A DNA stretch of 64,000 nt, taken from assembly GCA_937893495.1 (NCBI GenBank), contig CALBIE010000391.1:1363-65362 (forward strand). Reading direction: 5' to 3'. This document shows, one piece after another, positions 3,288 through 60,769 of the stretch. The stretch's first letter is position 1, and every line of letters starts with the position of its first letter. A program made the position numbers and the translations under genes. Source of the stretch: an uncultured Verrucomicrobiales bacterium. GTDB taxonomy: Bacteria; Verrucomicrobiota; Verrucomicrobiia; Limisphaerales; JAYPXF01. The notes under the pieces are model-generated. The model was not told where the DNA came from. It searched no databases and worked only from the letters and a program-made list of their open reading frames with translations.

Positions 3288-3551
3288 AGGTTAGCAGGGG
3301 TTGAGGGTCGCGAGTCAATTGGGATTGATTCTTGAAGTAATCGACTCGATTGCCAGCAAAAATTTATGCTGATCAGATTGTAGTTTCGCAATCGACCCAC
3401 CTCGGTTACTTACCAATAAAGGCTGTTGTTGGCAGCATCGCAGAGTTGCCGGATTAGTCTCGCTGGCGTGACCGGCAAGATGGACCGGCGGACTTTAATC
3501 TTCGCGATCTGGATTTTCTGCGAGGATTCTGCTTATAGTTACTTTCGGAAT

Positions 3552-6500: not shown

Positions 6501-6701
6501 TCGGCTGACGAACTTGGTATTCTTGAGCGAATCCACGAGAAGCAATTACCTGCGTATCGAGCCAACCCGCAAGCCGCGCACGATTTGTTGAACGTGGGAA
6601 GTACCTCGTGCGATCCGAGTCTGGATACGGTTGAACTGGCTGCCTTGACGGCAGTCGCAAACCTGATTCTCAGTCTCGACGAAACGATCACGAAATTATG
6701 A
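3552..6701 (+). CDS. PSCyt/DUF1549/DUF1553 family protein with central LamG (concanavalin-like) insert
   Basis: Signal peptide after the Met at 3552 (MRTRIAMLLFALLGGFSFHAVAA). CxxCH motif CFRCHGPD (planctomycete cytochrome c-type domain). DUF1549-like segment (RRLSLDLTGLPPTIEEID). LamG-like insert (LIAHYAFEGDL...GRIDDARIYHRALGETEV). DUF1553-like C-terminus (ARVIVNRYWSEIFGRGIVATSEDFGSQGDWPEHPELLDWLA). The ORF-track TTG start at 3426 is judged an upstream extension. Confidence 0.9.
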   Translation: MRTRIAMLLFALLGGFSFHAVAAEFADTPRYGRDIRPILADKCFRCHGPDAASRKAELRLDRREDAIALRDGLRAVSPGDSGSSELLHRITHKDEDDRMPPPDSGLVLNSTEIATLRQWIIQGARYEKHWSLTVPIRPPLPLVKNATWLRNGIDTFILSRLEREKIGGPSPVATKETLIRRLSLDLTGLPPTIEEIDAYLGDHSSGAYERVVDRLLNSPRFGEKMAGPWLDAARFADSNGYFTDMERTMWPWREWVIRAFNDNMPFDQFTIEQLAGDLLPGATLQQKIATGFNRNHMVNNETGIIADEFRVEYVADRVKTTSTVWMGLTLECARCHDHKYDPISQEDYYRFFAFFNNVPEKGLDGGRGNAAPVLNVATAAQTARLKSLEKKIQLAEQEFKSTEEQLRIAQTKWEETCLSNLPKATDDGLIAHYAFEGDLVDSTGGGRDGAKQGEVGFKPGYLGNAVELSGGSAIEVDANLPIGNGEAFSAGAWIYSTGGGTACVISKIDDAHGLRGFDLVLRKGKAVVHLIHQWNGNAIEVATVESVSGRQWQHLMFTYDGSGHAAGVSIYLNGDRQALEIRRDALTGSFATAEPLRIGRRQASASFQGRIDDARIYHRALGETEVRNLASGQFLRGAMAVSSDKRDKFLQQKLRDYFVSQHAENIQRQAVAELARLKGEAADYKASLPIMMVMAEEQKPRSSFVLERGEYNRRGKLVEPGVPASLSPLPANEPPNRLGLARWLMAPENPLTARVIVNRYWSEIFGRGIVATSEDFGSQGDWPEHPELLDWLACEFRENGWNVKGLLRLIVTSAIYRQTSRSNSERIALDPDNRFLARGPRFRMTAETLRDNALRLSGLLAEVMGGPSVKPYQPDGLWREMTYDSGLSYQPDLGASLYRRSLYTYWKRQSPPPNMLLFDAPTRETCTVARTRTNTPLQALALMNDPTFVEAARNLAGRMMREAGSQAAARIRHGFRIATGRHPSADELGILERIHEKQLPAYRANPQAAHDLLNVGSTSCDPSLDTVELAALTAVANLILSLDETITKL

Positions 6702-8134
6702 ACATGCTGTCGCGACATGAATGGCGGGGAACCCGGAGGCAATTTCTCGGCCAGGGCGCCGGACTGGGCGTGGCGGCGCTCGCTTCGCTCATCAATCCGG
6801 GAGTCTTCGCCAATAGCGCGGCGGGCAGTGGTTCGGTCGTTCTGCCGCGCGCAAAAAGGATCATCTACCTGTTCATGCATGGTGGTCCGCCGCAGATGGA
6901 GTTGTTCGATCACAAACCGGGCCTGGATCAGAAGCGCGGAAGCGAATTGCCCGCCTCCGTGCGTGGCCGTCAACGCTTGACGGGGATGACGTCCGGTCAA
7001 AAAAACTTTCCCGTGGTTCCATCCAGCTTTCGCTTCGAACGGCATGGCCAATCCGGTGCCAGTATCAGTGAACTGATGCCCGGCCTGGCGGGCGTCGCTG
7101 ATGATCTCTGCTTCATCAAGTCCATGCACACCGAGGCGATCAATCACGATCCCGCCGTGACCTATTTGCAGACTGGCCATCAACAACCCGGCCGACCGAG
7201 CTTCGGTGCCTGGGCAAGCTATGGCTTGGGCAGCGAGAATCAGGATCTACCCGCGTTTGTGGTTCTTCTTTCCAATGGCAGCGCTTCGCGGCCGACCGAT
7301 CCGCTTCATGCGCGCCTATGGGGTTCCGGGTTTCTGCCTTCCAATCATCAGGGCGTTAAATTTCGATCCGGGAACGAGCCGGTACTCTACTTGTCGAATC
7401 CGCCCGGGATCGATGCCGCCAGCCGCCGCCGAATGATTGAAGGGCTGTCTGCTTTGAACCGAAAACATTTTCAGTCGTTCGGCGATCCGGAGATCATCAC
7501 GCGAACGTCACAGTTCGAATTGGCTTCGCGAATGCAGATGTCCGTGCCCGAGTTGACTGATTTATCGAAAGAATCTGACGACGTCTTCAATCTTTACGGG
7601 CCGGACGCAAAGAAGCCCGGTTCCTTTGCCCGGAACTGCATCCTCGCGCGCCGTCTCGCCGAACGCGGCGTGCGGTTCATCCAGCTTTACCATCGCGGTT
7701 GGGATCAGCACTACAATCTCCCCACCGACCTGCGACTCCAATGCCGCGATGTCGATCAACCCTGCGCCGCCCTCGTGCGCGATTTGAAACGACGTGGTCT
7801 GTTGGAAGACACGCTGATCGTCTGGGCGGGAGAGTTCGGACGAACGATTTACAGCCAGGGCAATCTGGAATCCAACAACTACGGTCGCGATCATCACGGC
7901 GGTTGTTTCACCATCTGGCTCGCCGGTGGCGGCATCAAACCGGGGATATCCTACGGCCTGACCGATGAATACTCGTTCAACGTCGCCGAGAATGGCGTGC
8001 ATGTGCATGACCTGAACGCGACGCTTCTCAACCGCCTGGGAATCGACCACGAAAAATTGACATTCAAGTACCAGGGCCGCAACTATCGCCTGACCGATGT
8101 GCACGGTAGTGTTGTGGACGGCTTGCTCGTGTGA
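6698..8134 (+). CDS. DUF1501 family (sulfatase-fold) protein with Tat-type signal
   Basis: 478-aa ORF with a twin-arginine leader (RRQFLGQGAGLGVAALA) and DUF1501 hallmarks (HGGPPQMELFDHKP, GEFGRT, GRDHH). ATG 6698 overlaps the TGA (6699-6701) of the upstream gene as ATGA, the classic DUF1553/DUF1501 pairing. Confidence 0.9.
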   Translation: MNMLSRHEWRGTRRQFLGQGAGLGVAALASLINPGVFANSAAGSGSVVLPRAKRIIYLFMHGGPPQMELFDHKPGLDQKRGSELPASVRGRQRLTGMTSGQKNFPVVPSSFRFERHGQSGASISELMPGLAGVADDLCFIKSMHTEAINHDPAVTYLQTGHQQPGRPSFGAWASYGLGSENQDLPAFVVLLSNGSASRPTDPLHARLWGSGFLPSNHQGVKFRSGNEPVLYLSNPPGIDAASRRRMIEGLSALNRKHFQSFGDPEIITRTSQFELASRMQMSVPELTDLSKESDDVFNLYGPDAKKPGSFARNCILARRLAERGVRFIQLYHRGWDQHYNLPTDLRLQCRDVDQPCAALVRDLKRRGLLEDTLIVWAGEFGRTIYSQGNLESNNYGRDHHGGCFTIWLAGGGIKPGISYGLTDEYSFNVAENGVHVHDLNATLLNRLGIDHEKLTFKYQGRNYRLTDVHGSVVDGLLV

Positions 8135-44029: not shown

Positions 44030-44065
44030 GCGAAAATGCAGTGGAGGGATTGGGACATGGTTCGA

Positions 44066-44148
44066 GCGTCCCTTCAGGACGCCGTAGCTATTGAAATCCT
44101 TGCCCCGGACTGAAGTCCGGGGCTTTTACGGGTGATGCCTTCAGCATC
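44066..44148 (+). repeat. REP unit 1 (three hairpins, orientation A)
   Basis: GCGTCCcttcaGGACGC ... CCCCGGACtgaaGTCCGGGG ... GATGCcttcaGCATC. Confidence 0.85.
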
Positions 44149-44162
44149 CGATTTACGCGTAG

Positions 44163-44300
44163 AGGTATTGTTATCGCCGGGCAGTTCGGACCTGCCGAGA
44201 TCCTCGGTGAGGACAAAGACGATGTTGGGTTTGCGCTCAGACGTTGCGGTTAATGCGCAGACGATTACGACAACGAAAGCGGCAATGCTTCGTAAAGATG
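44163..44300 (-). pseudogene. 5' remnant of a sulfatase gene trapped between two inverted REP units
   Basis: The minus strand encodes SIAAFVVVIVCALTATSERKPNIVFVLTEDLGRSELPGDNN, then breaks off into REP sequence. A stretch of about 40 nt (ccgagatcctcggtgaggacaaagacgatgttgggtt) is nearly identical to the 5' end of the adjacent sulfatase (43918-43955). Confidence 0.6.
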
Positions 44301-44328
44301 GCCACGAACAACCGAAGCCGATGCTGAA

Positions 44329-44412
44329 AGCATCTCCGATAACAGCCCCGGACTTCAGTCCGGGGTCATCCGCGCCCAAATGAAACGCGTCCTGAAGGGA
44401 CGTCCGATCACG
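44329..44412 (-). repeat. REP unit 2 (orientation B)
   Basis: GATGCtgaaaGCATC ... CCCCGGACttcaGTCCGGGG ... GCGTCCtgaagGGACGt; inverse of units 1 and 3. Confidence 0.85.
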
Positions 44413-44416
44413 CCGT

Positions 44417-44878
44417 TCAATCCCAAACATATCGTTCATCATAATCAACCTGATAGGCTTTCAGAAACTTCCGGAATTCAACTTGAAATGAAACTTTCCG
44501 ATGATGTTCCTGCTGTTTCCGAATGTATTCAACGACCTGGTCCGTGTCTTTCGGGCTGATACTGAACCAACCATAACCGGCCTGCCAATTGAAATGGCCG
44601 TGGATCATATTGTTGTCGTTGATCCATTTGGATGATCCGCCCTTCAATTCCTTCATGAAGTCCACGTCCGTGGTGGTCTTGGAGGATTTGATCAAAAGGT
44701 GTACATGGTCAGGCATGCCGTTGATGGCGATTAACCCAGCGCCGCGTTCTCGCACCATGCCGGTCATGTAGGAATGAATCCGATCTGCGATGTCGGTCCC
44801 GATCATCGGTTTACGGTTCTTCGTGGAGAACACGATGTGGGCGAAATTACAGTGGAGAGATTGAGGCATCGGGGGCAA
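44417..44878 (-). CDS. REP-associated tyrosine transposase (RAYT; IS200/IS605 TnpA-like Y1 HUH transposase)
   Basis: 153-aa ORF. AHIVFSTKNRKP, HUH motif PDHVHLLI, C-terminal catalytic-Tyr region VVEYIRKQQEHH. Flanked by inverted REP units 2 and 3. Confidence 0.85.
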   Translation of the reverse strand: MPPMPQSLHCNFAHIVFSTKNRKPMIGTDIADRIHSYMTGMVRERGAGLIAINGMPDHVHLLIKSSKTTTDVDFMKELKGGSSKWINDNNMIHGHFNWQAGYGWFSISPKDTDQVVEYIRKQQEHHRKVSFQVEFRKFLKAYQVDYDERYVWD

Positions 44879-44882
44879 TCGG

Positions 44883-44965
44883 GCGTCCCTTCAGGACGCC
44901 ATTGTTATCGTTTTCCTTCCCCCAGACTGAAGTCCGGGGCTTTTAGGGATGATGCTTTCAGCATC
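44883..44965 (+). repeat. REP unit 3 (orientation A)
   Basis: GCGTCCcttcaGGACGC ... CCCCaGACtgaaGTCCGGGG ... GATGCtttcaGCATC. Confidence 0.85.
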
Positions 44966-45003
44966 GATTTCGTGCGTCTCTCAGTTGGGCTCAGTTTCGG
45001 ACA

Positions 45004-46830: not shown

Positions 46831-47063
46831 TGATGAGCCCGGCAACCACGCTTTTGCAACGGTTCTGGAGGGCAGGAAAACTGGTCGATGAGTTCATGAA
46901 AGGCTAGGGCGATGGATGCAGGATGCTGCTCGGACGTGATGAGGACAAGCCGCATTCGAAGATCAGCCGTTCGATTTCTGGAGGAATTCGGTCAGGCCCA
47001 GGCTTCAACTCAGCCAATTCCGCGGTGTTTCAGTATCGGACAGCGCAATCGGCCACTTGCGAC

Positions 47064-47147
47064 GATGCTGAAAGCATCATCCGAAATAGCCCCGGACTTC
47101 AGTCCGGGGTCACCTGCGCCCGCAGGACACGCGTCCTGAAGGGACGC
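47064..47147 (-). repeat. REP unit 4 (orientation B)
   Basis: GATGCtgaaaGCATC ... CCCCGGACttcaGTCCGGGG ... GCGTCCtgaagGGACGC. Confidence 0.85.
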
Positions 47148-47171
47148 CCGAACACACCGCTCAGTCTCGAA

Positions 47172-47255
47172 ATTGTTGTCGTTAATCCATTTGGATGATT
47201 CGCTCTTCAATTCCTACATGAAGTCCAGGGCTGTTATCGGTGATGCTTTCAGCAT
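47172..47255 (-). pseudogene. 58-bp internal fragment of a second RAYT gene plus a lone REP hairpin (decayed REP/RAYT unit)
   Basis: 47172-47229 (attgttgtcgttaatccatttggatgattcgctcttcaattcctacatgaagtcca) is about 90% identical by eye to 44608-44665 inside the intact RAYT gene (region ...DFMKELKGGSSKWINDNN). GATGCtttcaGCATC lies at 47241-47255. Confidence 0.7.
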
Positions 47256-47280
47256 CCGTTTCATTCGTCCGCGAATCGGG

Positions 47281-50575: not shown

Positions 50576-53563
50576 GTGAAATCTTTCGCCGCCATCCTGA
50601 TTGTCAGTGCACAACTCGCCGTTGCAGCGCAAGTGCCGGCGGATGCCGGATCGCATTGGGCGTTTCAGCCGGTCGCCAATCCAACGGTTCCCGGGCTGCC
50701 CGATTCAGATTGGGTGCGTTCTCCCATTGATGCCTTTGTCCTGCAAAAACTACGCGGTGCGAAACTCGCTCCTTCACCCGAAGCGGATCGGCGCACTTTG
50801 ATTCGCCGGGTTTATTACACGCTGACCGGGCTGCCGCCGTCGCCCGAGGAGGTCACCCGCTTTGTCGCCGATACCGATCTACACGCCTATGAACGGTTGG
50901 TCAATGCGTTGCTTGAGTCGCCGCATTACGGCGAGCACTGGGGGCGGCATTGGCTGGACGTGGCGCGTTACGCGGACACCAAGGGCTACGTGTATGCCCG
51001 CGAGGAACGATTCTGGACGCATGCCTGGGCGTATCGGGATTGGGTCGTCAATGCACTCAATGATGATTTGCCGTACAATCGCTTCCTGCTGCTGCAACTC
51101 GCGGCGGACCAGGTCAAAGACCGGAAGAACGACGACCTCGCGGCGATGGGGTTCCTCACTTTGGGGCGGCGTTTCCTTGGAGTGCAACGCGAGATCATCG
51201 ACGACCGCATCGACGTGGTCACGCGCGGGACGATGGCCTTGACCGTGAGTTGCGCGCGTTGCCACGACCACAAATACGATCCGATTCCGACAGCCGATTA
51301 CTATTCGCTCTACGGTATCTTTGCCAGCAGCGCGGAGCGCAAGACGGCGTTGGGTGCCAAACCGGCGGGTGACGAAGCCTTTCAGACGGAACTGCGCAAA
51401 CGCCAGGAGAAGCTGACGACCACGGTCGCGACCCGTCGCCGGGAATCATCGGACCGCACCCGTCGGCGTATCGCCGAATATCTGAACGCACAGACCGAAC
51501 TGCAAAAGTATCCAGCGGATGGTTTTGACCAGGTGTTTTCGAAGGACGATTTGCTGCCGGCGTTTGTGCGGCGCTGGGAGACGTATCTGCATGAGTCGAG
51601 GCAGAAGCGTGACCCTGTTTTTGTGCTGTGGCATGCCTATGCTGCATTGCCGGAGAAATCCTTCCGGGAAGACGCGGTTGCGGTTACGCGACGACTGGCC
51701 GAAGCTGCGGAGGGAAGCATCAATCCCATCGTGGCGGCGGCATTCAAGGAATCGCCGGAATCGTTCGAGCAGGTTGTTGAGCGGTATGGAAAGTCGTTTG
51801 GCGAGATCGAAACCCGGTGGCAGTCGCTGATAAAAACAGCGAAGAATGAAAAGCAGTCCCCGCCCGAAACACTTCCCGAATCGAGCGCGGAAGCGTTGCG
51901 GCGCATATTGCACGGGCCGGGTGCGCCGTGCGAGGTTCCGGACCTACCGATTGTTCACAGCGAAACGTTTTTTGATTCGGGATCATTGACAGCACTCTGG
52001 AAACTTCAGGGCGAGGTGGATCGGTGGATCGTGAATTCGAAGATCGCCGCGCCGTTCGCGTTGACGATGGTGGACCGGCCGCAACCCGTCGCCAGCCGCG
52101 TGTTTCTGCGCGGCAATCCGCTGACGCAGGGCGAGGAGACGCCGCGGCATTTCCTGTCCCTTTTCGGCACCGAAAGTCGCAAGCCATTTCAACATGGCAG
52201 CGGGCGGATGGAGCTTGCGCGGGCGATTGTCGATCCCACCAATCCGTTGACCGCCCGCGTCGCGGTCAATCGCGTGTGGATGCATCACTTTGGCGAAGGG
52301 CTGGTGACCACGCCCAGTGATTTCGGTCTGCGCGCCGGCGCGCCTTCTCATCCGGAATTGCTGGATTGGCTCACCACCCGATTCATCGCCGAAGGCTGGA
52401 GCTTCAAGAAACTACATCGACTGATTCTACTCTCCGCAACGTTCCGCCAATCTGCGGCCGGGCCGCGGGATGAATCGGTTCGCGCACAGGCGATACAGTT
52501 CGATCCGGACAACCGCTTGCTGTGGCGGGTGAACCAGCATCGGCTGACGTTCGAGGAATTTCGCGACACGATGTTTGCTTCGGCGGGTGAGCTCGACCGG
52601 GGCGCTGGCGGGAAGCCGGCGGACATGTTCAAGCCGCCGTTTCTCAAGCGGCGCGCGCTCTACGGGCTGGTGGATCGTCAATACCTGCCGGGCACTTTGC
52701 GCGTGTTCGATTTCGCGAATCCCGATCTGCATATCCCGCAACGCAGCGAAACCACCGTGCCGCAACAGGCGTTGTTTTTCATGAACCATCCGCTGGTGCT
52801 CGAACGCGCACGCGCCCTGGCAAAGGCGGGCGGCGAATCCGCGTTGCCAAAGGAAAAAACTCGCGCCCTGTTTCAACGGGCGTTTCAGCGGGATCCGACT
52901 GACGCCGAAGTGGCTGAGTCACTGGATCTGATTCGAGCCGCCGCCGCGACGCCGACCTCCAAGCCACCCGTCACGGCGAAGGATTGGCAATACGGCTATG
53001 GGACGTTCGACGAGATGGCCGAACGTGTGACAGGATTCACCGCGCTTCCGCATTTCACCGGCGCAGCGTGGCAGGGCGGCCCGAGTTGGCCGGACGCCAA
53101 GCTGGGCTGGGTACAACTCACCGCCACAGGCGGGCATCCGGGCAACGATTTGAAACACGCCGCAGTTCGCCGCTGGACTGCACCTCGCAAGATGGCGATC
53201 GAGATTCAATCGCGACTGGTTCACGAACCGAAGGCCGGTGATGGCATCCGGGCGTTCATCGTGAGTTCACGCACCGGAAAACTGAAGGCCGAGACGATTC
53301 ATCAGAAGACGGTCACGATGAACGTATTGTCGCTTGAAGTGGAAAAGGGCGAGACGATCGATTTCGTGGTGGACATCGGCAAGGTGCTGAACAGCGATCA
53401 GTACCTGTGGAGCGCAAAGGTGTTGGAAGCGGCGAAGCGGGAAGGCCGTCTGGCGTGGAATTCGCAGGACGATTTTCCGAAGAACGAGATCAATCGGCTG
53501 ACCGGCTGGGAACAACTCGCCCAGGCGCTGCTGTGCTCGAACGAGTTTTTGTTTGTGGATTGA
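50576..53563 (+). CDS. DUF1549/DUF1553 family protein (no cytochrome-like domain)
   Basis: 995-aa ORF with a GTG start and signal peptide (KSFAAILIVSAQLAVAAQ). RRVYYTLTGLPPSPEEV, CARCHDHKYDPI, ARVAVNRVWMHHFGEGLVTTPSDFG..G..PSHPELLDWL. Confidence 0.9.
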   Translation: MKSFAAILIVSAQLAVAAQVPADAGSHWAFQPVANPTVPGLPDSDWVRSPIDAFVLQKLRGAKLAPSPEADRRTLIRRVYYTLTGLPPSPEEVTRFVADTDLHAYERLVNALLESPHYGEHWGRHWLDVARYADTKGYVYAREERFWTHAWAYRDWVVNALNDDLPYNRFLLLQLAADQVKDRKNDDLAAMGFLTLGRRFLGVQREIIDDRIDVVTRGTMALTVSCARCHDHKYDPIPTADYYSLYGIFASSAERKTALGAKPAGDEAFQTELRKRQEKLTTTVATRRRESSDRTRRRIAEYLNAQTELQKYPADGFDQVFSKDDLLPAFVRRWETYLHESRQKRDPVFVLWHAYAALPEKSFREDAVAVTRRLAEAAEGSINPIVAAAFKESPESFEQVVERYGKSFGEIETRWQSLIKTAKNEKQSPPETLPESSAEALRRILHGPGAPCEVPDLPIVHSETFFDSGSLTALWKLQGEVDRWIVNSKIAAPFALTMVDRPQPVASRVFLRGNPLTQGEETPRHFLSLFGTESRKPFQHGSGRMELARAIVDPTNPLTARVAVNRVWMHHFGEGLVTTPSDFGLRAGAPSHPELLDWLTTRFIAEGWSFKKLHRLILLSATFRQSAAGPRDESVRAQAIQFDPDNRLLWRVNQHRLTFEEFRDTMFASAGELDRGAGGKPADMFKPPFLKRRALYGLVDRQYLPGTLRVFDFANPDLHIPQRSETTVPQQALFFMNHPLVLERARALAKAGGESALPKEKTRALFQRAFQRDPTDAEVAESLDLIRAAAATPTSKPPVTAKDWQYGYGTFDEMAERVTGFTALPHFTGAAWQGGPSWPDAKLGWVQLTATGGHPGNDLKHAAVRRWTAPRKMAIEIQSRLVHEPKAGDGIRAFIVSSRTGKLKAETIHQKTVTMNVLSLEVEKGETIDFVVDIGKVLNSDQYLWSAKVLEAAKREGRLAWNSQDDFPKNEINRLTGWEQLAQALLCSNEFLFVD

Positions 53564-53673
53564 GATGATGATGGCGCAAACGAAATTCCGCCAGGTCTTG
53601 GAGTGCCCCGACACGGGGATGTCGGGGTTTTCGGGTGTGGTTGATGGGTTCAAATCGAAGCCCGAACCAAACA

Positions 53674-53821
53674 GGGGAGCGCGCCCGCCTCGGGCGCTGT
53701 TTTCCGCGCCCTCGCGGAAAACCCGGTCGCACCGAAATGATTTGAAAGTTTTTGTCAGTATCGCGCGCAAGATGCTGGCCGCGAGGCGCGGCCAGCCACA
53801 CCCGAGGCGGGTGTGCTCCCC
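53674..53821 (+). mobile_element. four-hairpin MITE-like element, copy D (diverged stems, same architecture and termini)
   Basis: GGGGAGCGCGCCCGcctCGGGCGC .. TTTTCCGCGccctCGCGGAAAA .. CTGGCCGCGaggCGCGGCCAG .. ACACCCGaggCGGGTGTGCTCCCC. Confidence 0.7.
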
Positions 53822-54031
53822 AGGTCCGAAGTTCGGTCTCAAACGTCTGGAGATGTCGGAGCGTAAGCGCGGGCCACGGACGTCCGTGAGGCGCTGGGTT
53901 TTCCCTTTCGAACGACTTGGACAGTTGGATGCCACAAGGAAAGCGGCGCAGCAGCGCACGCACTCCGAGACGCTCGCGCGTTTTCCGATGCACCCGGTTC
54001 AGATTGAGTGCGCGAAACTGATTGATTAACA

Positions 54032-55468
54032 ATGAAGCCAAATCATCTCAATGAACTCTGGCAACTGCCCCTCACCCGCAGGGATGTCCTTCGCCGCTCC
54101 GCGCTCGGGATTGGTTCGCTCGGGCTGTTCGGTGCGTTGGGAGATGATCAACGACTTTCCGCCGCGAGTACGTCCAAACCGGGACCGTTGACCCCGCATG
54201 GCACGCACTTCCCGGGCCGGGCAAAACGTGTCATTCATTTCTTCCTCAACGGCGGACCGTCACATGTCGATACCTTCGATCCAAAGCCGGCCCTCGCAAA
54301 ACATGCCGGCAAGACGCTGAGCAATACGTTGACCACCGAACGCAAGACCGGCGCGGCGTTTCCGTCGCCGTTTGAATTTCGGCCGTATGGACAGAGCGGA
54401 ATCGAGGTCAGTGATTGTTTTCCACTCACCGCCCAACACATCGACGACATTGCGGTGATTCGTTCGATGTATGCTCAAGTGCCCAATCACGAACCGTCCC
54501 TCATGCTGATGAACTGCGGCGATTCCGTGCAGGCGCGACCGAGCGTCGGCGCGTGGCTGCTGTATGGACTGGGCACGGAGAATCAGAATCTTCCCGGCTT
54601 CATCGCCATGTGTCCCGGTGGCCTGCCGATCAAGGACAACGAAAACTGGCAGTCGGCGTTTCTGCCCGGCGCGTTTCAGGGAACCTACGTCGATTCGAAA
54701 CATCAGGAATTCAGCAAACTGATCGAGAACATCGAGCATCCGCAGATTTCGCGCACGGATCAGCGACGCCAGTTGGATCTGATTGCCCGCTGGAACGCCC
54801 GACATCGCGCCGTCCGGCTGGATGACCGCCTCGACGCCCGCATCCAATCGTATGAACTGGCCTTCCGCATGCAGCACGAGGCGACGGATGCCTTTGATAT
54901 CTCGCGCGAACCGAAGCTGGTCCGCGAGTTGTATGGCAATGGTGTTCATGGCCGGCAGACGCTCATCGCGCGGCGCCTGCTCGAACGCGGCGTGCGTTAT
55001 GTGCAGTTGTGGCATGGCGCGGGTCAGCCATGGGACAACCACGACAAGATTGCGGAGAACCATGGCCGTTTGGCGAAGGAACTCGATCAACCCATCGCCG
55101 CATTATTGGCTGACTTGAAGCAACGCGGAATGTTGGACGACACATTGGTGATTTGGGGCGGCGAGTTTGGCCGGACACCGACGGTCGAATTATCCGGTGC
55201 AGGCACGTCAAAACTCGGGCGGGATCACAATCATTACGGTTTCACTGTGTGGATGGCCGGCGGCGGCATCAAGGGCGGCACGGTTCACGGCGCGACGGAC
55301 GAATTCGGCTTCAAGGCCGCGGTGGATCCCACGAGTGTGCATGACCTGCACGCGACGATTCTCCACACGCTTGGACTGAATCACGAGCGACTCACTTACC
55401 GATACGCCGGCCGCGACTTCCGCCTGACGGATGTCCACGGGCATGTGCTGCACGACATTCTGGCGTAG
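54032..55468 (+). CDS. DUF1501 family (sulfatase-fold) protein with Tat-type signal
   Basis: 478-aa ORF. TRRDVLRRSALGIGSLGLFGAL, NGGPSHVDTFDPKP, GEFGRTP, GRDHN. Paralogue of 6698..8134. Confidence 0.9.
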   Translation: MKPNHLNELWQLPLTRRDVLRRSALGIGSLGLFGALGDDQRLSAASTSKPGPLTPHGTHFPGRAKRVIHFFLNGGPSHVDTFDPKPALAKHAGKTLSNTLTTERKTGAAFPSPFEFRPYGQSGIEVSDCFPLTAQHIDDIAVIRSMYAQVPNHEPSLMLMNCGDSVQARPSVGAWLLYGLGTENQNLPGFIAMCPGGLPIKDNENWQSAFLPGAFQGTYVDSKHQEFSKLIENIEHPQISRTDQRRQLDLIARWNARHRAVRLDDRLDARIQSYELAFRMQHEATDAFDISREPKLVRELYGNGVHGRQTLIARRLLERGVRYVQLWHGAGQPWDNHDKIAENHGRLAKELDQPIAALLADLKQRGMLDDTLVIWGGEFGRTPTVELSGAGTSKLGRDHNHYGFTVWMAGGGIKGGTVHGATDEFGFKAAVDPTSVHDLHATILHTLGLNHERLTYRYAGRDFRLTDVHGHVLHDILA

Positions 55469-55493
55469 GCAAGCGGTTCCCGTTCTTCAAATT

Positions 55494-55649
55494 GGGGAGC
55501 ACAGCCGGCCCGGCTGTCCATTCCGGCGGCTCGCCGGAATGATTGGTGCGCAAAATTCTCACGTTATCACTCGAAAGGGTTCCGCCGCACAAACGTGCGA
55601 CGTTTTCGGCGCGACGTCGAAAACAACCCACGAGACGCGGGCGCTCCCC
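55494..55649 (+). mobile_element. four-hairpin MITE-like element, copy C
   Basis: GGGGAGCACAGCCGGccCGGCTGT cc ATTCCGGCGgctCGCCGGAAT ... GTTTTCGgcgcgacgtCGAAAAC ... GCGCTCCCC. The right half is more degenerate than in copies A and B. Confidence 0.7.
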
Positions 55650-55727
55650 CGACTTGATGAACACCGCTCGTCTTTGGAACTCGAAGATCGGGATTGGCAC
55701 GTCGCAGAATCGCTGCATCATTCGGAC

Positions 55728-58265
55728 ATGCGACGACGAATGATTCTTTCCGCTTTGATTGCCTCGGTGCTTGGCCTGCTGTGCCTTGATTCTGCCGCGC
55801 AAACCACCAGGGCGAAGAAAAACAAAAGAAAGAAGGACAAGTCCGGGATCATCAATCCCGGGCGAATCGCGCCCGGCGGAGTCATCGCGCCAGTAGCGTC
55901 GCTGAATGGCTCCGGGCACGAGGATTTCTCCGCCATGTGCCTGGGTGCCGATGGCCAGCCGGTCGTTGCATACGTTCATTTCGACGGCAAGGCCGACTCG
56001 TTGAAGGTGGCTCATCTGATGAACGGCGCATTTGCCGAACTTGAAACGCTTTCCGAGGCCGGCAACATCTATCAACCAAACCTTGCCCGCGACGGGAAAA
56101 ACCAAATCTGGTGCGTCTGGTCTGAACTCGTTGCCGGGCGTTGGAATCTCATCGCGCAACGAATCAAGTCCGGCAAACGCGTCGTCGTTGCGGCCGGCTC
56201 CGGCAACAACGTCTTCGCGGATGCGAAGACGGATCGCAAAGGCCGCGTGTGGGTGGCCTGGCAGCGGTTTCACAACGGCTTCAGCGACATCGTCGCCCGC
56301 CATTACGATCCGAAGAACGATCGGTGGTCGAAGGAAATCGCAGTCGCAAACGACAAGGCCGGTGAATGGGAACCGCGGCTTGCGTTCGGCGCGCGCGATG
56401 AGGCGCTCATCGTTTTCGACAGTTATCGCCGCAGCGACTACGACGTGTATCTCGCGCGCGTGCCGCCGGCCGGCAAGGTGAGTGTTTCGCCCATTGCCGC
56501 GACTTCGCGTTATGAGGCTCGCGCCGATGCGGAGACCTCACCCGATGGAAAAACTCTGTGGGTCGCTTACGAGGATGGCACCGAACGGTGGGGCAAAGAC
56601 CTTGGTTCCGAATGGCGCAAGAGCGGCGGTGGATTGAACTACGATCGGCGAATCAAGGTGGTGCGCGTTAATCTGGATACTGATGCCATCGAAAAGGTTT
56701 CCGACATTACTCCGCTGATTCCCGACGTGGTGAGCCAGCGGCAGGGTCCGGGTTCCGGGGCCGTTAATCTGCCGGAGATTGCCGTGGATGGTGAAGGCCG
56801 TCCGTGGGTGTTTTTCCGCTATTGCCAGGAACGCGGCAGCGGCTTCTGGCAGATTGCTGCGACGCGATTCGACGGAAAGGAATGGGCGAAGGCGCGCACA
56901 CTGGCTGACAGCGAGTTTTGTCAGGACCGACGGACGTCGGTGGCGCTCAACAAGGCCGGGCAGCTCTTCGCCGCGTGGCCGAGTGATCAGCGTCGGAACA
57001 AGCAGCAGGGCAACACCGGCGTTTATCTCGCACGCATCGACACCGCGGAGAAGCTCGCATCGGCCGGCGCGGTGCCGTGGGACATCGCGGGCATTCCGGA
57101 ATCACCGTTGAAGGCACCCAACGACACGCCCGAAAGGAATCGCAACGAGCATCACGAATGGAAGATCAACGGCGAGACCTACACACTGTTCTGGGGCGAT
57201 GTGCATCGCCACACGGATTTTTCGAACTGCCGCACCACGGATGACGGCTGTATCGTGGAACATTTCCGTTACGCCATCGACTCCGGCGGGCTCGATTACC
57301 TTGCCACGTCCGATCACACGGAAGTCGGCAAGACGCTTTCGCCCTACGAATGGTGGCAGTCGCAGAAGTTGGCGGACATTTTTCAGAACCCCGGGTTCTT
57401 CCTTTCGCTCTACGCCTACGAGCGGGAGCAGAAGTGGCCTTACGGGCATCGCAACATCGTCTTTCCCGAACGCGGCGGGCCGGTCATCTACATCAAGCGC
57501 GGCAACTACGAGAAATCACCATGGGCCACACCGTTGCCGAATCAAGACGGGGTGCGTGATGGTGAGATCCCGCCGTGGCAGCTTTGGGAACTCCTCCGCA
57601 CGCATGGGAAGCGGGCGGTGACCATCGAACACACTTCGGCCGGCGGCATGGGCACAGACTGGACGGTCTATGACAAGATTGATCACAAGTTCGAAAACAT
57701 CATCGAGCTGTTTCAGGGCTCCCGCGAAAGCTACGAGGGCGTCGGTGCCCCGCAGCCGCGTGTCGTCACAACAACCGGCAAGAGCCAGTTCGGCAAGTTC
57801 AACGCCGGGGTCTGGCAGAACGCACTGCGCCTCGGCCATCGCCTCGGCGCTTACGCCAGCTCGGACCATCGGTCTGTCCACATCTCGTATGGCGGGGTGT
57901 ATGTGAAGAAATTCAGCCGGCACGGCATCCTCGACGCGATGGACAATCGCCTGACCGTCGCCGCGACGGACAAGATTTTCATGGAATTCTCCTGCAACGG
58001 CCAGCCGCTCGGCAGCGTGATGAGCAGCAAGACGAATCCAAAGTTGTCGTGGCTGGTTGAGGGCACGGCACCGATTGAACGCATCACGCTCATCCGCAAC
58101 GAGAAGGACTACAAGGTCTTCGAGCCGAACAGCAAGACCGCCGCGCAGACCTGGGTGGACGAGAATCCGTTGAAGGGCGAGAATCGTTACTACCTCCGCA
58201 TCGAACAGGTGGACGGAAACATGGGCTGGACCTCGCCGGTGTGGGTGGATTTCACGGGCGAGTAA
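55728..58265 (+). CDS. secreted protein with N-terminal repeat (propeller-like) region and PHP/DUF3604-like metal-dependent hydrolase domain (tentative)
   Basis: Met at 55728 (MRRRMILSALIASVLGLLCLDSAAQ) chosen, because the ORF-track start at 55431 reads through MITE copy C. The motif WGDVHRHTDFSNC...DYLATSDHTE resembles the His-rich metal site of PHP/CehA-type hydrolases. Confidence 0.8.
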   Translation: MRRRMILSALIASVLGLLCLDSAAQTTRAKKNKRKKDKSGIINPGRIAPGGVIAPVASLNGSGHEDFSAMCLGADGQPVVAYVHFDGKADSLKVAHLMNGAFAELETLSEAGNIYQPNLARDGKNQIWCVWSELVAGRWNLIAQRIKSGKRVVVAAGSGNNVFADAKTDRKGRVWVAWQRFHNGFSDIVARHYDPKNDRWSKEIAVANDKAGEWEPRLAFGARDEALIVFDSYRRSDYDVYLARVPPAGKVSVSPIAATSRYEARADAETSPDGKTLWVAYEDGTERWGKDLGSEWRKSGGGLNYDRRIKVVRVNLDTDAIEKVSDITPLIPDVVSQRQGPGSGAVNLPEIAVDGEGRPWVFFRYCQERGSGFWQIAATRFDGKEWAKARTLADSEFCQDRRTSVALNKAGQLFAAWPSDQRRNKQQGNTGVYLARIDTAEKLASAGAVPWDIAGIPESPLKAPNDTPERNRNEHHEWKINGETYTLFWGDVHRHTDFSNCRTTDDGCIVEHFRYAIDSGGLDYLATSDHTEVGKTLSPYEWWQSQKLADIFQNPGFFLSLYAYEREQKWPYGHRNIVFPERGGPVIYIKRGNYEKSPWATPLPNQDGVRDGEIPPWQLWELLRTHGKRAVTIEHTSAGGMGTDWTVYDKIDHKFENIIELFQGSRESYEGVGAPQPRVVTTTGKSQFGKFNAGVWQNALRLGHRLGAYASSDHRSVHISYGGVYVKKFSRHGILDAMDNRLTVAATDKIFMEFSCNGQPLGSVMSSKTNPKLSWLVEGTAPIERITLIRNEKDYKVFEPNSKTAAQTWVDENPLKGENRYYLRIEQVDGNMGWTSPVWVDFTGE

Positions 58266-58266
58266 A

Positions 58267-58423
58267 GGGGACCACAGTCGGCCCGACTGTCCATTCCGGC
58301 GGCTCGCCGGAATGATCGTTGCGCGCGGATATCCAGGTGCCAATCGGATTGGAACAGCAACACGATCTCCCAACTTTTTTTGGCGAGCCGCCAAAAACAA
58401 CACGCGGGCCGCGTGTGCTCCCC
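58267..58423 (+). mobile_element. four-hairpin MITE-like element, copy A (fills the whole gap between two convergent stop codons)
   Basis: GGGGACCACAGTCGGccCGACTGT cc ATTCCGGCGgctCGCCGGAAT ... TTTTTGGCGagCCGCCAAAAA ca ACACGCGGgcCGCGTGTGCTCCCC. Stop codons lie at 58263-65 (+) and 58425-27 (-). Confidence 0.8.
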
Positions 58424-58424
58424 A

Positions 58425-59213
58425 TCACCAAAGCGTGTAGCCACCATCAATGACCAACGCCGCGCCGGTCATGTAGCGTGAGGCAGAGCTGGCCAGGTAA
58501 ACGGCCAACGGGCCCAAATCCTCCGGTTCACCGAACTTGCCCATCGGTATTTCCGCCTCGAACTTTTTGATCACGTCCGGGTTCTCCCGCGCCCACCGTT
58601 GGTTCGGTTCAGTCATGAATCCGCCCGGGCAGATGGCGTTGACCGTGATGCCGTGCGGCGCCCAATCGGCCGCGACCGTCCGGGTGAACTGGATGACAGC
58701 GGCCTTCGATGTCTCGTAACTCCTTCCGCCGATTCCGCGATTGGCAATCATGCCGGAGATGGATGCGATGTTGATGATGCGCCCACCGTTGCCTCGTTCA
58801 ATCATGGCCTTGCCGATCAGTTTCGTGCAGAGAAATGTGCTGGTGAGGTTCAGGTCCATGATTCGTTGCCATTCCGCCAACGGCAAATCCTCGGTCGGAA
58901 CGTTGATCAACCGCCCACCGACGTTGTTGATGAGGATGTCGATTGGTCCGTGTTGCTCAAGCGCTGCGCGGCACATGGATTCACACTCGCCGGGGTTACC
59001 CGCGTCGGCCTGAATCGTGACGGCTTGTCGTCCCAGTTTTTCAATATCACCGGCAGTGGCGGCGAGCGATTCGGCATCGCGACCGACGAGGATGGCATCA
59101 GCACCGGCATCCGCGATGGCGAGCGCCATTTCGCGCCCGAGCCCGCGACTGCCGCCGGTGATGAGCATCCGTTTGCCGGCGAGGGAAAAGCGTTTGAAGA
59201 TGGAGTTGGGCAT
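58425..59213 (-). CDS. SDR family oxidoreductase (gluconate 5-dehydrogenase / KduD-like)
   Basis: 262-aa ORF. TGGSRGLG cofactor motif, NNVG, and the catalytic region YETSKAAV. Confidence 0.9.
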   Translation of the reverse strand: MPNSIFKRFSLAGKRMLITGGSRGLGREMALAIADAGADAILVGRDAESLAATAGDIEKLGRQAVTIQADAGNPGECESMCRAALEQHGPIDILINNVGGRLINVPTEDLPLAEWQRIMDLNLTSTFLCTKLIGKAMIERGNGGRIINIASISGMIANRGIGGRSYETSKAAVIQFTRTVAADWAPHGITVNAICPGGFMTEPNQRWARENPDVIKKFEAEIPMGKFGEPEDLGPLAVYLASSASRYMTGAALVIDGGYTLW

Positions 59214-59233
59214 ATTCTAAATGTCATTGGGTT

Positions 59234-59389
59234 GGGGAGCACAGCCGGCCCGGCTGTCCCTTCCGGCGGCCCGCCGGAAGGATCTTGATGCGCGGAAGCT
59301 CAGATGCCAATCGGAACGGAACAGCAGCACGACCGCCCAACTGTTTTTGGCGAGCCGCCAAAAACAACACGCGGGCCGCGTGTGCTCCC
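59234..59389 (+). mobile_element. four-hairpin MITE-like element, copy B
   Basis: GGGGAGCACAGCCGGccCGGCTGT cc CTTCCGGCGgcCCGCCGGAAG ... TTTTTGGCGagCCGCCAAAAA ca ACACGCGGgcCGCGTGTGCTCCC. Lies between the SDR start and the stop of the CN-hydrolase gene. Confidence 0.8.
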
Positions 59390-59395
59390 GTTCCG

Positions 59396-60769
59396 TCATT
59401 TCTCCACCACCCACTCCGGACGTGCGCGGTTGATGCGGGCCTTGAAATCGCCGAGGCCGTGCCAGTGGTTTCGCTGGTTCAGGTCCACTTCCGCCACAAT
59501 GACTTCGCCCCATTCCTTCGCCTGCTGAATCATCTCGCCCTCGTGATTGAAGACGGCGGTCTTGATCCAGTTCTGGTTGTGATCGGTGTAGGTGCTGCTG
59601 ACCAGATAGACGTGATTTTCGCACGCGCGCGCCGCGGCCAGCGCCGGATTGCATCCCCAGACCGGATGGGCAATCACTTCGGCGCCGTTGATGGTCAACT
59701 GCCGGGCGACCTCGGGAAAGAAGGCGTCGTAACATACCATCATGCCGACTTTGCCGAAGCGTGTTTCAAAAACCGGATACTCATTGCCCGGCGTCACGCC
59801 CCCATCCGCTTCGCCACGCGGCAGGCAGGTCTTGCGGTACTTTCCGGCAACGTTGCCATCCGGGCCGATGAGGACGGCGACGTTGTAGATGAGATGGTCC
59901 GCCTTCTCCAGCAGACCGACGACGATGTAGAGATTGTGCTGCTTCGCCAACCTGCCGAAGTACTTCGTCGATGGACCGGGAATGGTTTCCGCACACTCTG
60001 CATAGGATTTTCCCGTGCCATAGACCGTGATGGTTTCGCCCAATACGACGAGGTCGGCCTTCTTCGCGGCGGCTTGCTTGATGAACGGTTCGTACAGCCG
60101 GCAGTTGGCCTCTGGTGTTTTCTCCTTGCTGTTCGGCTTGAAGTGAACCGAGGCCAGTCGGACGATGCGCTTTGGCGGCGGGTCAACCGCTTCGAACTTG
60201 ACATCGTTCCAGCGCACTTCGCCAGTCGGAGGCGCCCAGCGAAAGATGAGTTCGATCACCGCTTTCGTCGCCTTCTTCGGTGCCTTGTACGTATCCAAAA
60301 CCTCTGCCCATCCATCCGCGCCCGCTGGTTGTTCGAGCGGGTAATCGGGACGCGCCGTCGAGACTCCGGAGCGGCCATACTTCGGATTGGTCGGATTGTC
60401 ATTCGGGACCAACCTGCCCTTGTCGTCCTGCCAGGTGATTTTCGCCAGGGCGCTGCGCCGGGCAACCGGGACATTCGTCGTCCGCCGCAGCGCGTGAAAG
60501 CGATAATGTTTCCCACCCTTGATGGAATATGTCTTCGTCCACGCGCCCTGCAATCCTTCGCGGTTGCCCATGCGAATGATGAAACTCGGCCGTCCTTCCG
60601 GGCCGTCCTTGGCGACGTAGTCAAACTTCGGTCGTATTTCCTCGCGCGGCGCGGTGGTCGTCCAACCGTGCGGGGCATTGATAGCCGGTTGGGAAGCAAA
60701 TAGCTGGCCTGCGGCGGACCCGAAAACGACGATGCCCAGAATCATCGTTCGGAATTGAAGGGCTTTCAT
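59396..60769 (-). CDS. carbon-nitrogen hydrolase (nitrilase superfamily) with N-terminal extra domain and signal peptide
   Basis: 457-aa ORF. Signal MKALQFRTMILGIVVFGSAAGQLFA. E-K-C triad contexts (VVLGET, GKYRKTCLP, MMVCYDAFFPE). Confidence 0.85.
   Translation of the reverse strand: MKALQFRTMILGIVVFGSAAGQLFASQPAINAPHGWTTTAPREEIRPKFDYVAKDGPEGRPSFIIRMGNREGLQGAWTKTYSIKGGKHYRFHALRRTTNVPVARRSALAKITWQDDKGRLVPNDNPTNPKYGRSGVSTARPDYPLEQPAGADGWAEVLDTYKAPKKATKAVIELIFRWAPPTGEVRWNDVKFEAVDPPPKRIVRLASVHFKPNSKEKTPEANCRLYEPFIKQAAAKKADLVVLGETITVYGTGKSYAECAETIPGPSTKYFGRLAKQHNLYIVVGLLEKADHLIYNVAVLIGPDGNVAGKYRKTCLPRGEADGGVTPGNEYPVFETRFGKVGMMVCYDAFFPEVARQLTINGAEVIAHPVWGCNPALAAARACENHVYLVSSTYTDHNQNWIKTAVFNHEGEMIQQAKEWGEVIVAEVDLNQRNHWHGLGDFKARINRARPEWVVEK

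Follow-up and report, generated by a model that had tools for sequence, protein, structure and literature searches.

What are the four hairpin-rich elements of about 150 nt that fill gaps between genes in a 64-kb stretch of DNA (the window) from an uncultured Verrucomicrobiales bacterium, and which enzyme spread them? The window is part of contig C391 in a draft assembly (G000; 7.98 Mb in 900 contigs, 56.8% G+C, ~88% complete and 6.7% contaminated). A preliminary description, made from the window sequence, had presented the elements as similar to miniature inverted-repeat transposable elements (MITEs) with complementary GGGGAGC...GCTCCCC ends. Our analysis indicates that they are probably members of a REPIN-like superfamily of non-autonomous DNA elements, the partner of which would be a HUH transposase of the RAYT/TIRYT type embedded in alaS, the gene of alanyl-tRNA synthetase (AlaRS).

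The elements and their genomic family

A covariance model of the end module of the elements gave exactly eight matches in the window, and these constitute four elements, which are listed with the positions and scores of their two modules.

53674..53821, no strand assigned: fam0 core, 148 nt; modules 53674-53723 (+) and 53772-53821 (-), 62.8 and 69.5 bits
55494..55649, no strand assigned: divergent fam1 element, 156 nt; modules 55494-55543 and 55600-55649, 72.1 and 37.2 bits
58267..58423, no strand assigned: fam1 element, 157 nt; modules 58267-58316 and 58374-58423, 62.0 and 68.0 bits
59234..59390, no strand assigned: fam1 element, 157 nt; modules 59234-59283 and 59341-59390, 73.2 and 62.5 bits

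The right module of the 55494-55649 element is degraded. A repeat finder assigned the copies at 55494, 58267 and 59234 to one family (87% identity between the latter two), and the 53674 copy has the ends and layout of these three with different stem sequences. Further copies are present in the genome in numbers. A BLAST search with the four copies found 265 loci, ~90 of them full length, and profile searches with nhmmer found 274 loci, of which 173 are near full length. A strict structural pattern detected 377 end modules, compared with 19 in a reversed-genome control, and 120 strict inverted dimers of 90-220 nt, while the covariance model of the module (R1) had at least ~150 matches.

Clustering of the exact GGGGAGC...GCTCCCC pairs gave at least five subfamilies with lengths of 148, 157, 170, 109, and 155 nt. 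The largest, fam0 (~60 full copies), contains the 53674 copy, and the other three copies of the window belong to fam1. All subfamilies share an end module of 48 nt with a fixed register, namely the tag GGGGAGC, a hairpin with a 7-bp stem and a 3-nt loop, one base, and a second hairpin with a 10-bp stem and a 3-4-nt loop. An element consists of two such modules in inverted orientation that flank a variable middle of ~12-75 nt. Conservation is higher in the ends than in the middles (0.84-0.98 vs 0.62-0.84); the 100% identity of the tag in this comparison is circular, as exact tags served as seeds for the alignments of the subfamilies. The mean pairwise identity within subfamilies is 66-85% with maxima of 93-97%, and no pair of copies is identical.

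Both orientations and all gene contexts are represented, and nearly all copies are intergenic. The numbers of tandem, convergent and divergent contexts (79/29/21) did not differ significantly from a crude background of 65/17/17% based on crude gene calls. The elements of fam0, fam1, fam2, and fam4 have 3.1-4.1 open frames out of six, compared with 1.7-2.4 in shuffled sequences, and fam3 showed no depletion of stop codons; with a mononucleotide shuffle as the only control, the depletion is suggestive only. Many fam1 and fam2 copies (e.g. C211:4645-4821, C51:10319-10489, and C300:9754-9922) have a hairpin of the GCGGCGCAGCCGC type located 5-10 nt outside one end, which could be a separate repeat, a favoured target site or a longer form of the element.

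A transposase bounded by the family ends

The genome has 25 matches to Pfam Y1_Tnp, and the family ends bound only one of them, a weak match on contig C103. The stronger IS200-like Y1_Tnp genes were considered as the cognate transposase and rejected, as they are not bounded by GGGGAGC ends. The C103 locus has two features.

G000:C103:6539-7155: RAYT/TIRYT-type HUH-Y1 cassette, 617 nt, with family modules inverted at both ends
G000:C103:5094-8435, minus strand: alaS gene with the in-frame RAYT cassette, 206 extra codons at about residue 414

The end-module model scores 69.7 and 65.2 bits at the two flanks of the cassette. The encoded protein matches the NCBIfam model REP_Tyr_transpos over its full length (E 1.2e-20, 73.9 bits) and Pfam Y1_Tnp with 30.4 bits (cut-off 23), and a PDB search gave no match by sequence. 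An AlphaFold2 model based on an alignment of 71 relatives was confident (pLDDT 87.8). Its best PDB match in Foldseek was 4ER8 (E 1.3e-7, TM 0.64), followed by the TnpA proteins of IS200, IS608, and ISDra2. The structure 4ER8 is a REP-associated tyrosine transposase bound to a REP hairpin. The RAYT is single-copy in the genome, with the nearest paralogue being 41% identical. The HUH motif and the catalytic tyrosine are invariant across the 71 RAYT sequences. The dN/dS values of the closest pairs are ~0.05-0.2 with a median of 0.22; the RAYT is under strong purifying selection. With its family ends, its match to REP_Tyr_transpos and its 4ER8 fold, the protein encoded at C103:6539-7155 is the candidate cognate transposase that the preliminary description had left to be sought.

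In-frame position of the RAYT in alaS and other genes

The alaS frame on the minus strand remains open for 1114 codons through the cassette, reading ...EDEVARLQGK, then GSTGGPPV...RAYT...AACAPL, and then CIDGPFAFKLYDTFGFP... This gene is the only alaS detected in the genome, and alaS is uninterrupted at the same site in five genomes of the same family. The cassette does not have its own stop codon. It contains an internal ATG, preceded by GGTGAGG and located 9 codons ahead of the conserved domain, which is found in this RAYT copy only; orthologues in other genomes have no ATG. The reading frame suggests that the transposase is most likely produced as a domain within AlaRS or else in the form of a C-terminal RAYT-AlaRS fusion, and the RAYT may act as part of AlaRS. 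An intein was considered and rejected on a reading of the sequence, in which the insert runs from GSTGGPPV to AACAP followed by L-C, with neither an N-terminal Cys/Ser at the junction nor a His-Asn followed by Cys/Ser/Thr. The Pfam scan of the RAYT part revealed no intein family; no dedicated intein search was made.

In other families of the order, RAYT orthologues are likewise embedded in AlaRS (at two sites), ThrRS (locus L022), and PriA (L025). Among the best loci of public Verrucomicrobiota genomes (L029-L107), the RAYT is located inside a host open reading frame (ORF) in 79 of 79, with hundreds of open codons on each side where the contig allows. The host is AlaRS in ~63 loci, and the others include RecG, a PFL-like glycyl-radical enzyme, an N6-DNA methylase, and MetH. 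The insertion in RecG is between the Walker A motif and the DEQH box, that in the N6-DNA methylase is just before the NPPY motif, and the MetH gene at L073 has two RAYT inserts. Weaker Y1_Tnp matches were observed in very long open frames of relatives (G017:C6, 1441 aa; G020:C54, 1414 aa; G035:C33, 1440 aa), and these sequences suggest a second clade of embedded RAYTs.

The alaS genes of three relatives (G017, G027, and G039; loci L018, L020, and L023) contain additional short inserts in frame that are matched by the end-module model, e.g. L020:3052-3150 and L023:2948-3114, and therefore one gene can hold several family members. A small element in frame was also found in the present genome.

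G000:C248:5011-5176: in-frame family member, 166 nt, with RAYT-type ends, in a gene for a DnaE2-like error-prone polymerase with a 1080-codon open frame

This copy is located in the linker before the OB-fold domain, and a same-family relative without the insert has a linker of 11 residues. Long open frames on both sides were found for 8 of 150 elements; the DnaE2 case alone seems genuine, and the other seven seem spurious. The cassette in alaS is a ninth read-through case and is counted separately from these eight.

We give about even chances to a more specific proposal, in which this AlaRS carries a translated and catalytically competent RAYT domain that serves the ~270 REPIN-type elements, and the Verrucomicrobiota RAYT clade exists only as in-frame, non-splicing passengers of genes for AlaRS, ThrRS, RecG, PriA, MetH, glycyl-radical enzymes, and DNA methylases. 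By analogy, the embedded RAYTs would resemble inteins in their strategy of persistence, minus the splicing.

Pairing of repeat and transposase across genomes

The terminal 24-mer of the cassette (tag and hairpin 1) occurs 43 times in the genome, 36 of them exact, and 0 times in the seven other RAYT-bearing genomes of the order. Conversely, the type with the GGGTGG tag, which is located at the flanks of the G017 and G027 RAYTs, is present in six of the seven RAYT-bearing relatives and never in the present genome. A third type is shared more widely. The module was found in 18 of 40 relatives. A close RAYT orthologue occurs in eight genomes, all of which are among these 18, and in none of the 22 that lack the module (Fisher p = 5.7e-4). 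In eight of nine loci of relatives, the RAYT orthologue is flanked by an inverted module. These flanks have the same architecture with covarying stems, and their tags are GGGGAGC, GGGTGGC or GGGTAGC; from its sequence, the tag looks like a variant of GTAG.

Maintenance of the hairpins

Covariation was evaluated with an alignment (A2) of 100 distinct modules from all subfamilies. Standard base pairs were present in 88.9% of the cells, compared with 65.5% after shuffling and 38-43% with the partners slid by 1-3 columns. Both-side changes occurred at 14 of 17 pairs, a number that does not differ from the shuffled value (13.4; 9-14 with slid partners), whereas the number of cells changed on both sides was 395, compared with 118 in the shuffles. 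The structure was derived from the same sequences and the copies are related, but the slid control still gives a clear contrast. The suggestion of the preliminary description that the hairpins are upheld by compensatory changes is therefore borne out.

The consensus sequences fold at about -100 kcal/mol. An Rfam scan of the region matched no family and gave only two sub-threshold chance matches. Matching of the consensus indicated that hairpin 1 is followed by a T-run in all four window elements, resembling a terminator, and the elements may affect transcription. Examples of such sites are 53681-53706, past the DUF1553 gene, and 58416-58391, past the SDR gene. Terminator-like matches in the scanned region as a whole are not enriched (10 vs 7.7 +/- 3.0 expected).

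Composite structure of fam0 and target-site duplications

The fam0 copies are flanked by conserved outer arms, with CCCGAATTCCGAAGTT before the core and TTTCTATTTCGGAATTCGGG after the core, and these arms were seen only beside fam0 cores. The unit around the 53674 copy of the window has the following parts outside its core.

53649..53653, no strand assigned: TTCAA, left 5-bp direct duplication of the fam0 composite; 4 of 5 bases equal to the right duplication
53654..53673, no strand assigned: left outer arm (inverted) of the fam0 composite, 20 nt; consensus of the family, read on the opposite strand, TTTCTATTTCGGAATTCGGG
53822..53837, no strand assigned: right outer arm (inverted) of the fam0 composite, 16 nt; consensus of the family, read on the opposite strand, CCCGAATTCCGAAGTT
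53838..53842, no strand assigned: CTCAA, right 5-bp direct duplication of the fam0 composite; pairs with TTCAA at 53649-53653

Direct repeats of 5 bp outside the arms are exact in 10 of 53 fam0 copies, compared with 0.88 expected and a maximum of 5 in 2000 permutations of partners. When one base of slack was allowed, 16 exact 5-mers were found vs 2.8 expected. The duplicated target resembles TTNAA. A search for arms-only copies or a parent insertion sequence (IS) found none, and candidate arm pairs enclose ordinary genes. Duplications of 5 bp are not produced by HUH-Y1 enzymes, and therefore fam0 was spread as a composite by another transposase that makes such duplications. In contrast, no duplication of >=3 nt was found at the GGGGAGC ends of fam1, fam2, and fam3, the subfamilies to which three of the window copies belong, and the flanks directly outside these ends are T-rich when read outward. 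A small subfamily, fam4 (e.g. C58:7956-8110 and C747:84-238), also has outer inverted arms of its own, CCGGATATTTCAC ... GTGAAATATCCGG, and may be another composite comparable to fam0, with copies too few for duplication statistics.

With regard to the preliminary description, the label of MITE-like elements thus suits the 53674 composite, which has outer inverted repeats and 5-bp duplications, and does not suit the other three copies, which are of the REPIN/TIR-dimer type (TIR, terminal inverted repeat). Likewise, the target-site duplications that it had proposed to look for are absent from the GGGGAGC ends of fam1-3 and present only at the outer arms of fam0.

Genes around the window elements

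When the region 53400-59700 was read and the four stretches were aligned, the copies were found where the preliminary description had placed them, with the four-hairpin order and the stem sequences that it had quoted. Three details are revised here. The extent that it gave for the 53674 copy is that of the core (53674-53821), and the larger unit with outer arms and 5-bp duplications spans 53649-53842. The last copy ends at 59390 instead of 59389, its terminal C being changed to G. The letters assigned to the copies were inconsistent, as "copy A" corresponds to 58267-58423 and "copy D" to 53674-53821.

The statements on gene context held. The 58267-58423 element fills the gap between two convergent stop codons, TAA at 58263-58265 and TGA at 58425-58427 on the minus strand. 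The 53674 element splits a gene pair, consisting of a DUF1549/DUF1553 gene (50576-53563) and a DUF1501 gene (54032-55468), leaving a gap of 468 nt, whereas the genes of the paralogous pair (3426-6701 and 6698-8134) are coupled by a 4-nt overlap. The ORFs 53553-54029 and 55431-58265 run through elements, as had been claimed. The 55494-55649 element starts 25 nt past the stop codon of the DUF1501 gene and is located 87 nt ahead of a likely ATG at 55737. The 842-residue protein encoded downstream of it (55737-58265) has a signal-peptide-like start, MRRRMILSALIASVLGLLCLDSAAQ, and a Pfam scan of this protein found no family at E <= 1e-5. The 59234-59390 element is located between the stop codon of a CN-hydrolase gene (59396-59398, minus strand) and the start of an SDR gene (59213, minus strand). 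For annotation, this means that the family makes spurious ORFs and false N-terminal extensions and parts genes that form coupled pairs elsewhere. With a model of the 48-nt module, many annotations of Verrucomicrobiota metagenome-assembled genomes could be cleaned up.

A second, unrelated unit of the REP/RAYT type was observed in the window at 44062-44978 and 47063-47269. It comprises a different IS200-like Y1 gene (about 44513-44842, minus strand; Pfam Y1_Tnp, 88.5 bits) with its own hairpin repeats, CCCCGGACTGAAGTCCGGGG and GATGCTTTCAGCATC, at its flanks.

Proposed mechanism and alternative explanations

We propose that the RAYT of C103 moves, or once moved, the elements. By analogy with the TnpA of IS200/IS605 and the E. 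coli TnpA-REP, it would recognize the folded hairpins and the 5' tag on single-stranded DNA, and would cut and rejoin the DNA without target-site duplication. Recognition of hairpin and tag would in turn explain the upkeep of the stems by compensatory change and the better conservation of the ends relative to the middles. In this proposal, the fam0 elements have gained the outer inverted arms and were spread as composites by the second, duplication-making transposase.

Several observations weigh against this proposal. The copies are old, and with near-identical copies absent, recent activity does not follow. The REP_Tyr_transpos score of the RAYT is below the curated cut-off of 80 bits. The hairpin-1 stems of fam0 and fam2 differ from those of the RAYT's own flanks; a second cognate enzyme could be missing from the ~88% complete assembly. 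A HUH-Y1 enzyme cannot have made the 5-bp duplications of fam0. The resemblance of the small elements to the RAYT cassette is confined to the terminal ~45 nt, too little to establish that they descend from it by internal deletion. The tag is GGGGAGC here (GGGTAGC or GGGTGGC in relatives), and the canonical GTAG of REPIN-RAYT systems is absent from the copies of this genome. Ten relatives have the module without a close RAYT orthologue; their genomes could be incomplete, their RAYT could be more distant, or the repeats could be orphans. Neither insertion polymorphism nor empty sites were found for the window copies in same-family genomes, where SDR orthologues are present with different neighbouring genes, and the empty-site pattern for 58267-58423 had no match in metagenome contigs.

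One alternative explanation is that the elements are fossils, which spread in the past while the alaS-embedded RAYT no longer transposes them; the RAYT would be kept for another reason or simply since an essential gene does not permit its deletion, and the hairpins would serve the host, e.g. as terminators or mRNA stabilizers. The divergence of the copies and the lack of identical pairs, the terminator-like hairpin 1 and T-run of all four window elements, the occurrence in all intergenic contexts at about background frequencies, and the ten relatives with modules but without a close RAYT are in agreement with this explanation. However, purifying selection on the RAYT is strong and its catalytic residues are invariant in >70 lineages, the exact 24-mer of the RAYT flank at 36 places in this genome only is hard to square with a long decay, and the lack of region-wide enrichment does not favour a terminator role. 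We therefore regard it as unlikely, though it is the most serious of the alternatives.

Classical MITEs, i.e. internally deleted copies of DDE-type ISs that are mobilized by cut-and-paste and have terminal inverted repeats and target-site duplications, are a distinctly weaker candidate and in our view improbable. The GGGGAGC...GCTCCCC ends are formally inverted repeats, and fam0, including the 53674 copy, has the outer arms and the excess of exact 5-bp duplications described above. Yet the lack of duplications in fam1, fam2, and fam3 does not fit, no IS with the fam0 arms was found, and no longer unit with GGGGAGC ends codes for a DDE enzyme, the RAYT cassette being the only coding unit. The compensatory upkeep of the hairpins also suits enzymes of the HUH type, which recognize hairpins, better. 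Structured non-coding RNA genes or a regulatory RNA motif, instead of mobile DNA, would account for the covariation and the stable consensus folds. Such an origin is very improbable in view of the missing Rfam match, the two-fold inverted symmetry, the variable middle, the presence in both orientations and in all gene contexts, the two copies inside coding frames, and the transposase gene bounded by the same ends. The assignment of the four window elements to a REPIN-like superfamily with an alaS-embedded RAYT partner remains the reading that we prefer.

Comparison with known systems

REPIN-RAYT systems are a leading example of long-lived, vertically inherited replicators within bacterial genomes. 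Work on them is said to have been almost wholly on Gammaproteobacteria, in which RAYTs are free-standing genes; a further reference for them is Nunvar 2010. Like these systems, the present family is built of palindromes that have a conserved 5' tag and form inverted dimers on either side of a short spacer. Its copies number in the hundreds and are mostly extragenic, and a single-copy HUH-Y1 transposase lies between inverted units without target-site duplication. The repeat variant is matched to its RAYT by lineage, and in structure the transposase comes closest to 4ER8. It differs in that the unit is a double hairpin of 48 nt instead of the single hairpin of 20-35 nt of a classical REP, that the host is a member of the Verrucomicrobiota (Limisphaerales/Pedosphaerales-type) instead of the Gammaproteobacteria, and that the RAYT is read in frame inside alaS instead of being free-standing. 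The reference systems for this comparison were those of Bertels & Rainey 2011 (PMC3116915) and PMC3337134, and the E. coli TnpA-REP structure 4ER8 (PMC3479197).

The closest class is that of the TIRtrons/TIRYTs, in which RAYT-like genes are located between longer inverted repeats that start with GGGG, some of them double palindromes, with dispersed families that often form dimers (Di Nocera et al. 2013, PMC3733652). The family described here shares the GGGG-tagged, double-palindromic inverted repeats around a RAYT-like gene. In GGGGAGCA/GGGGAGCG, 7 of 8 positions agree with the TIR motif GGGGWSAS, and position 7 differs, with C for A. Unlike the TIR families, which are only moderately abundant (PMC3733652), the present family is large, and a transposase in frame within a host gene is not described in that study.

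Among the subfamilies, fam0 is comparable to classical bacterial MITEs such as Correia elements and the Tn3-derived TIMEs with respect to its inverted ends, its fixed size of ~184-190 nt, its 5-bp duplications, and its A/T-rich target (~TTNAA). Unlike those, it has a full dimer of the REPIN type as its core, duplications are lacking in the other subfamilies, and a search for a parent IS gave none. Palindromic repeats that are tolerated in frame are also represented by the Rickettsia palindromic elements (RPEs), for which, to our knowledge, no cognate transposase is known. The copies in the DnaE2-like gene and in alaS are similar to RPEs (Ogata 2000) and to intragenic REPs, the recurrent hosts of which are DnaE2 and tRNA synthetases (Di Nocera 2013, PMC3733652). 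In contrast to both, only 2 of 150 scored copies are intragenic here, and the transposase itself is an intragenic passenger.

No description of a RAYT in frame inside alaS, nor of REPINs in Limisphaerales, was found in the literature. The genome thus adds a large and diversified REPIN-like population in Verrucomicrobiota, and the one transposase that matches it is carried in frame within a gene that is essential. Should the embedded domain be active, it would represent a new way for a transposase to become undeletable and a natural bifunctional tRNA synthetase-transposase protein, and would offer a tractable test bed composed of one protein and one 48-nt DNA substrate. Compared with the known systems, the elements themselves are a variant of the REPIN/TIR-dimer type, and it is the in-frame location of the transposase that is unusual and apparently undescribed.

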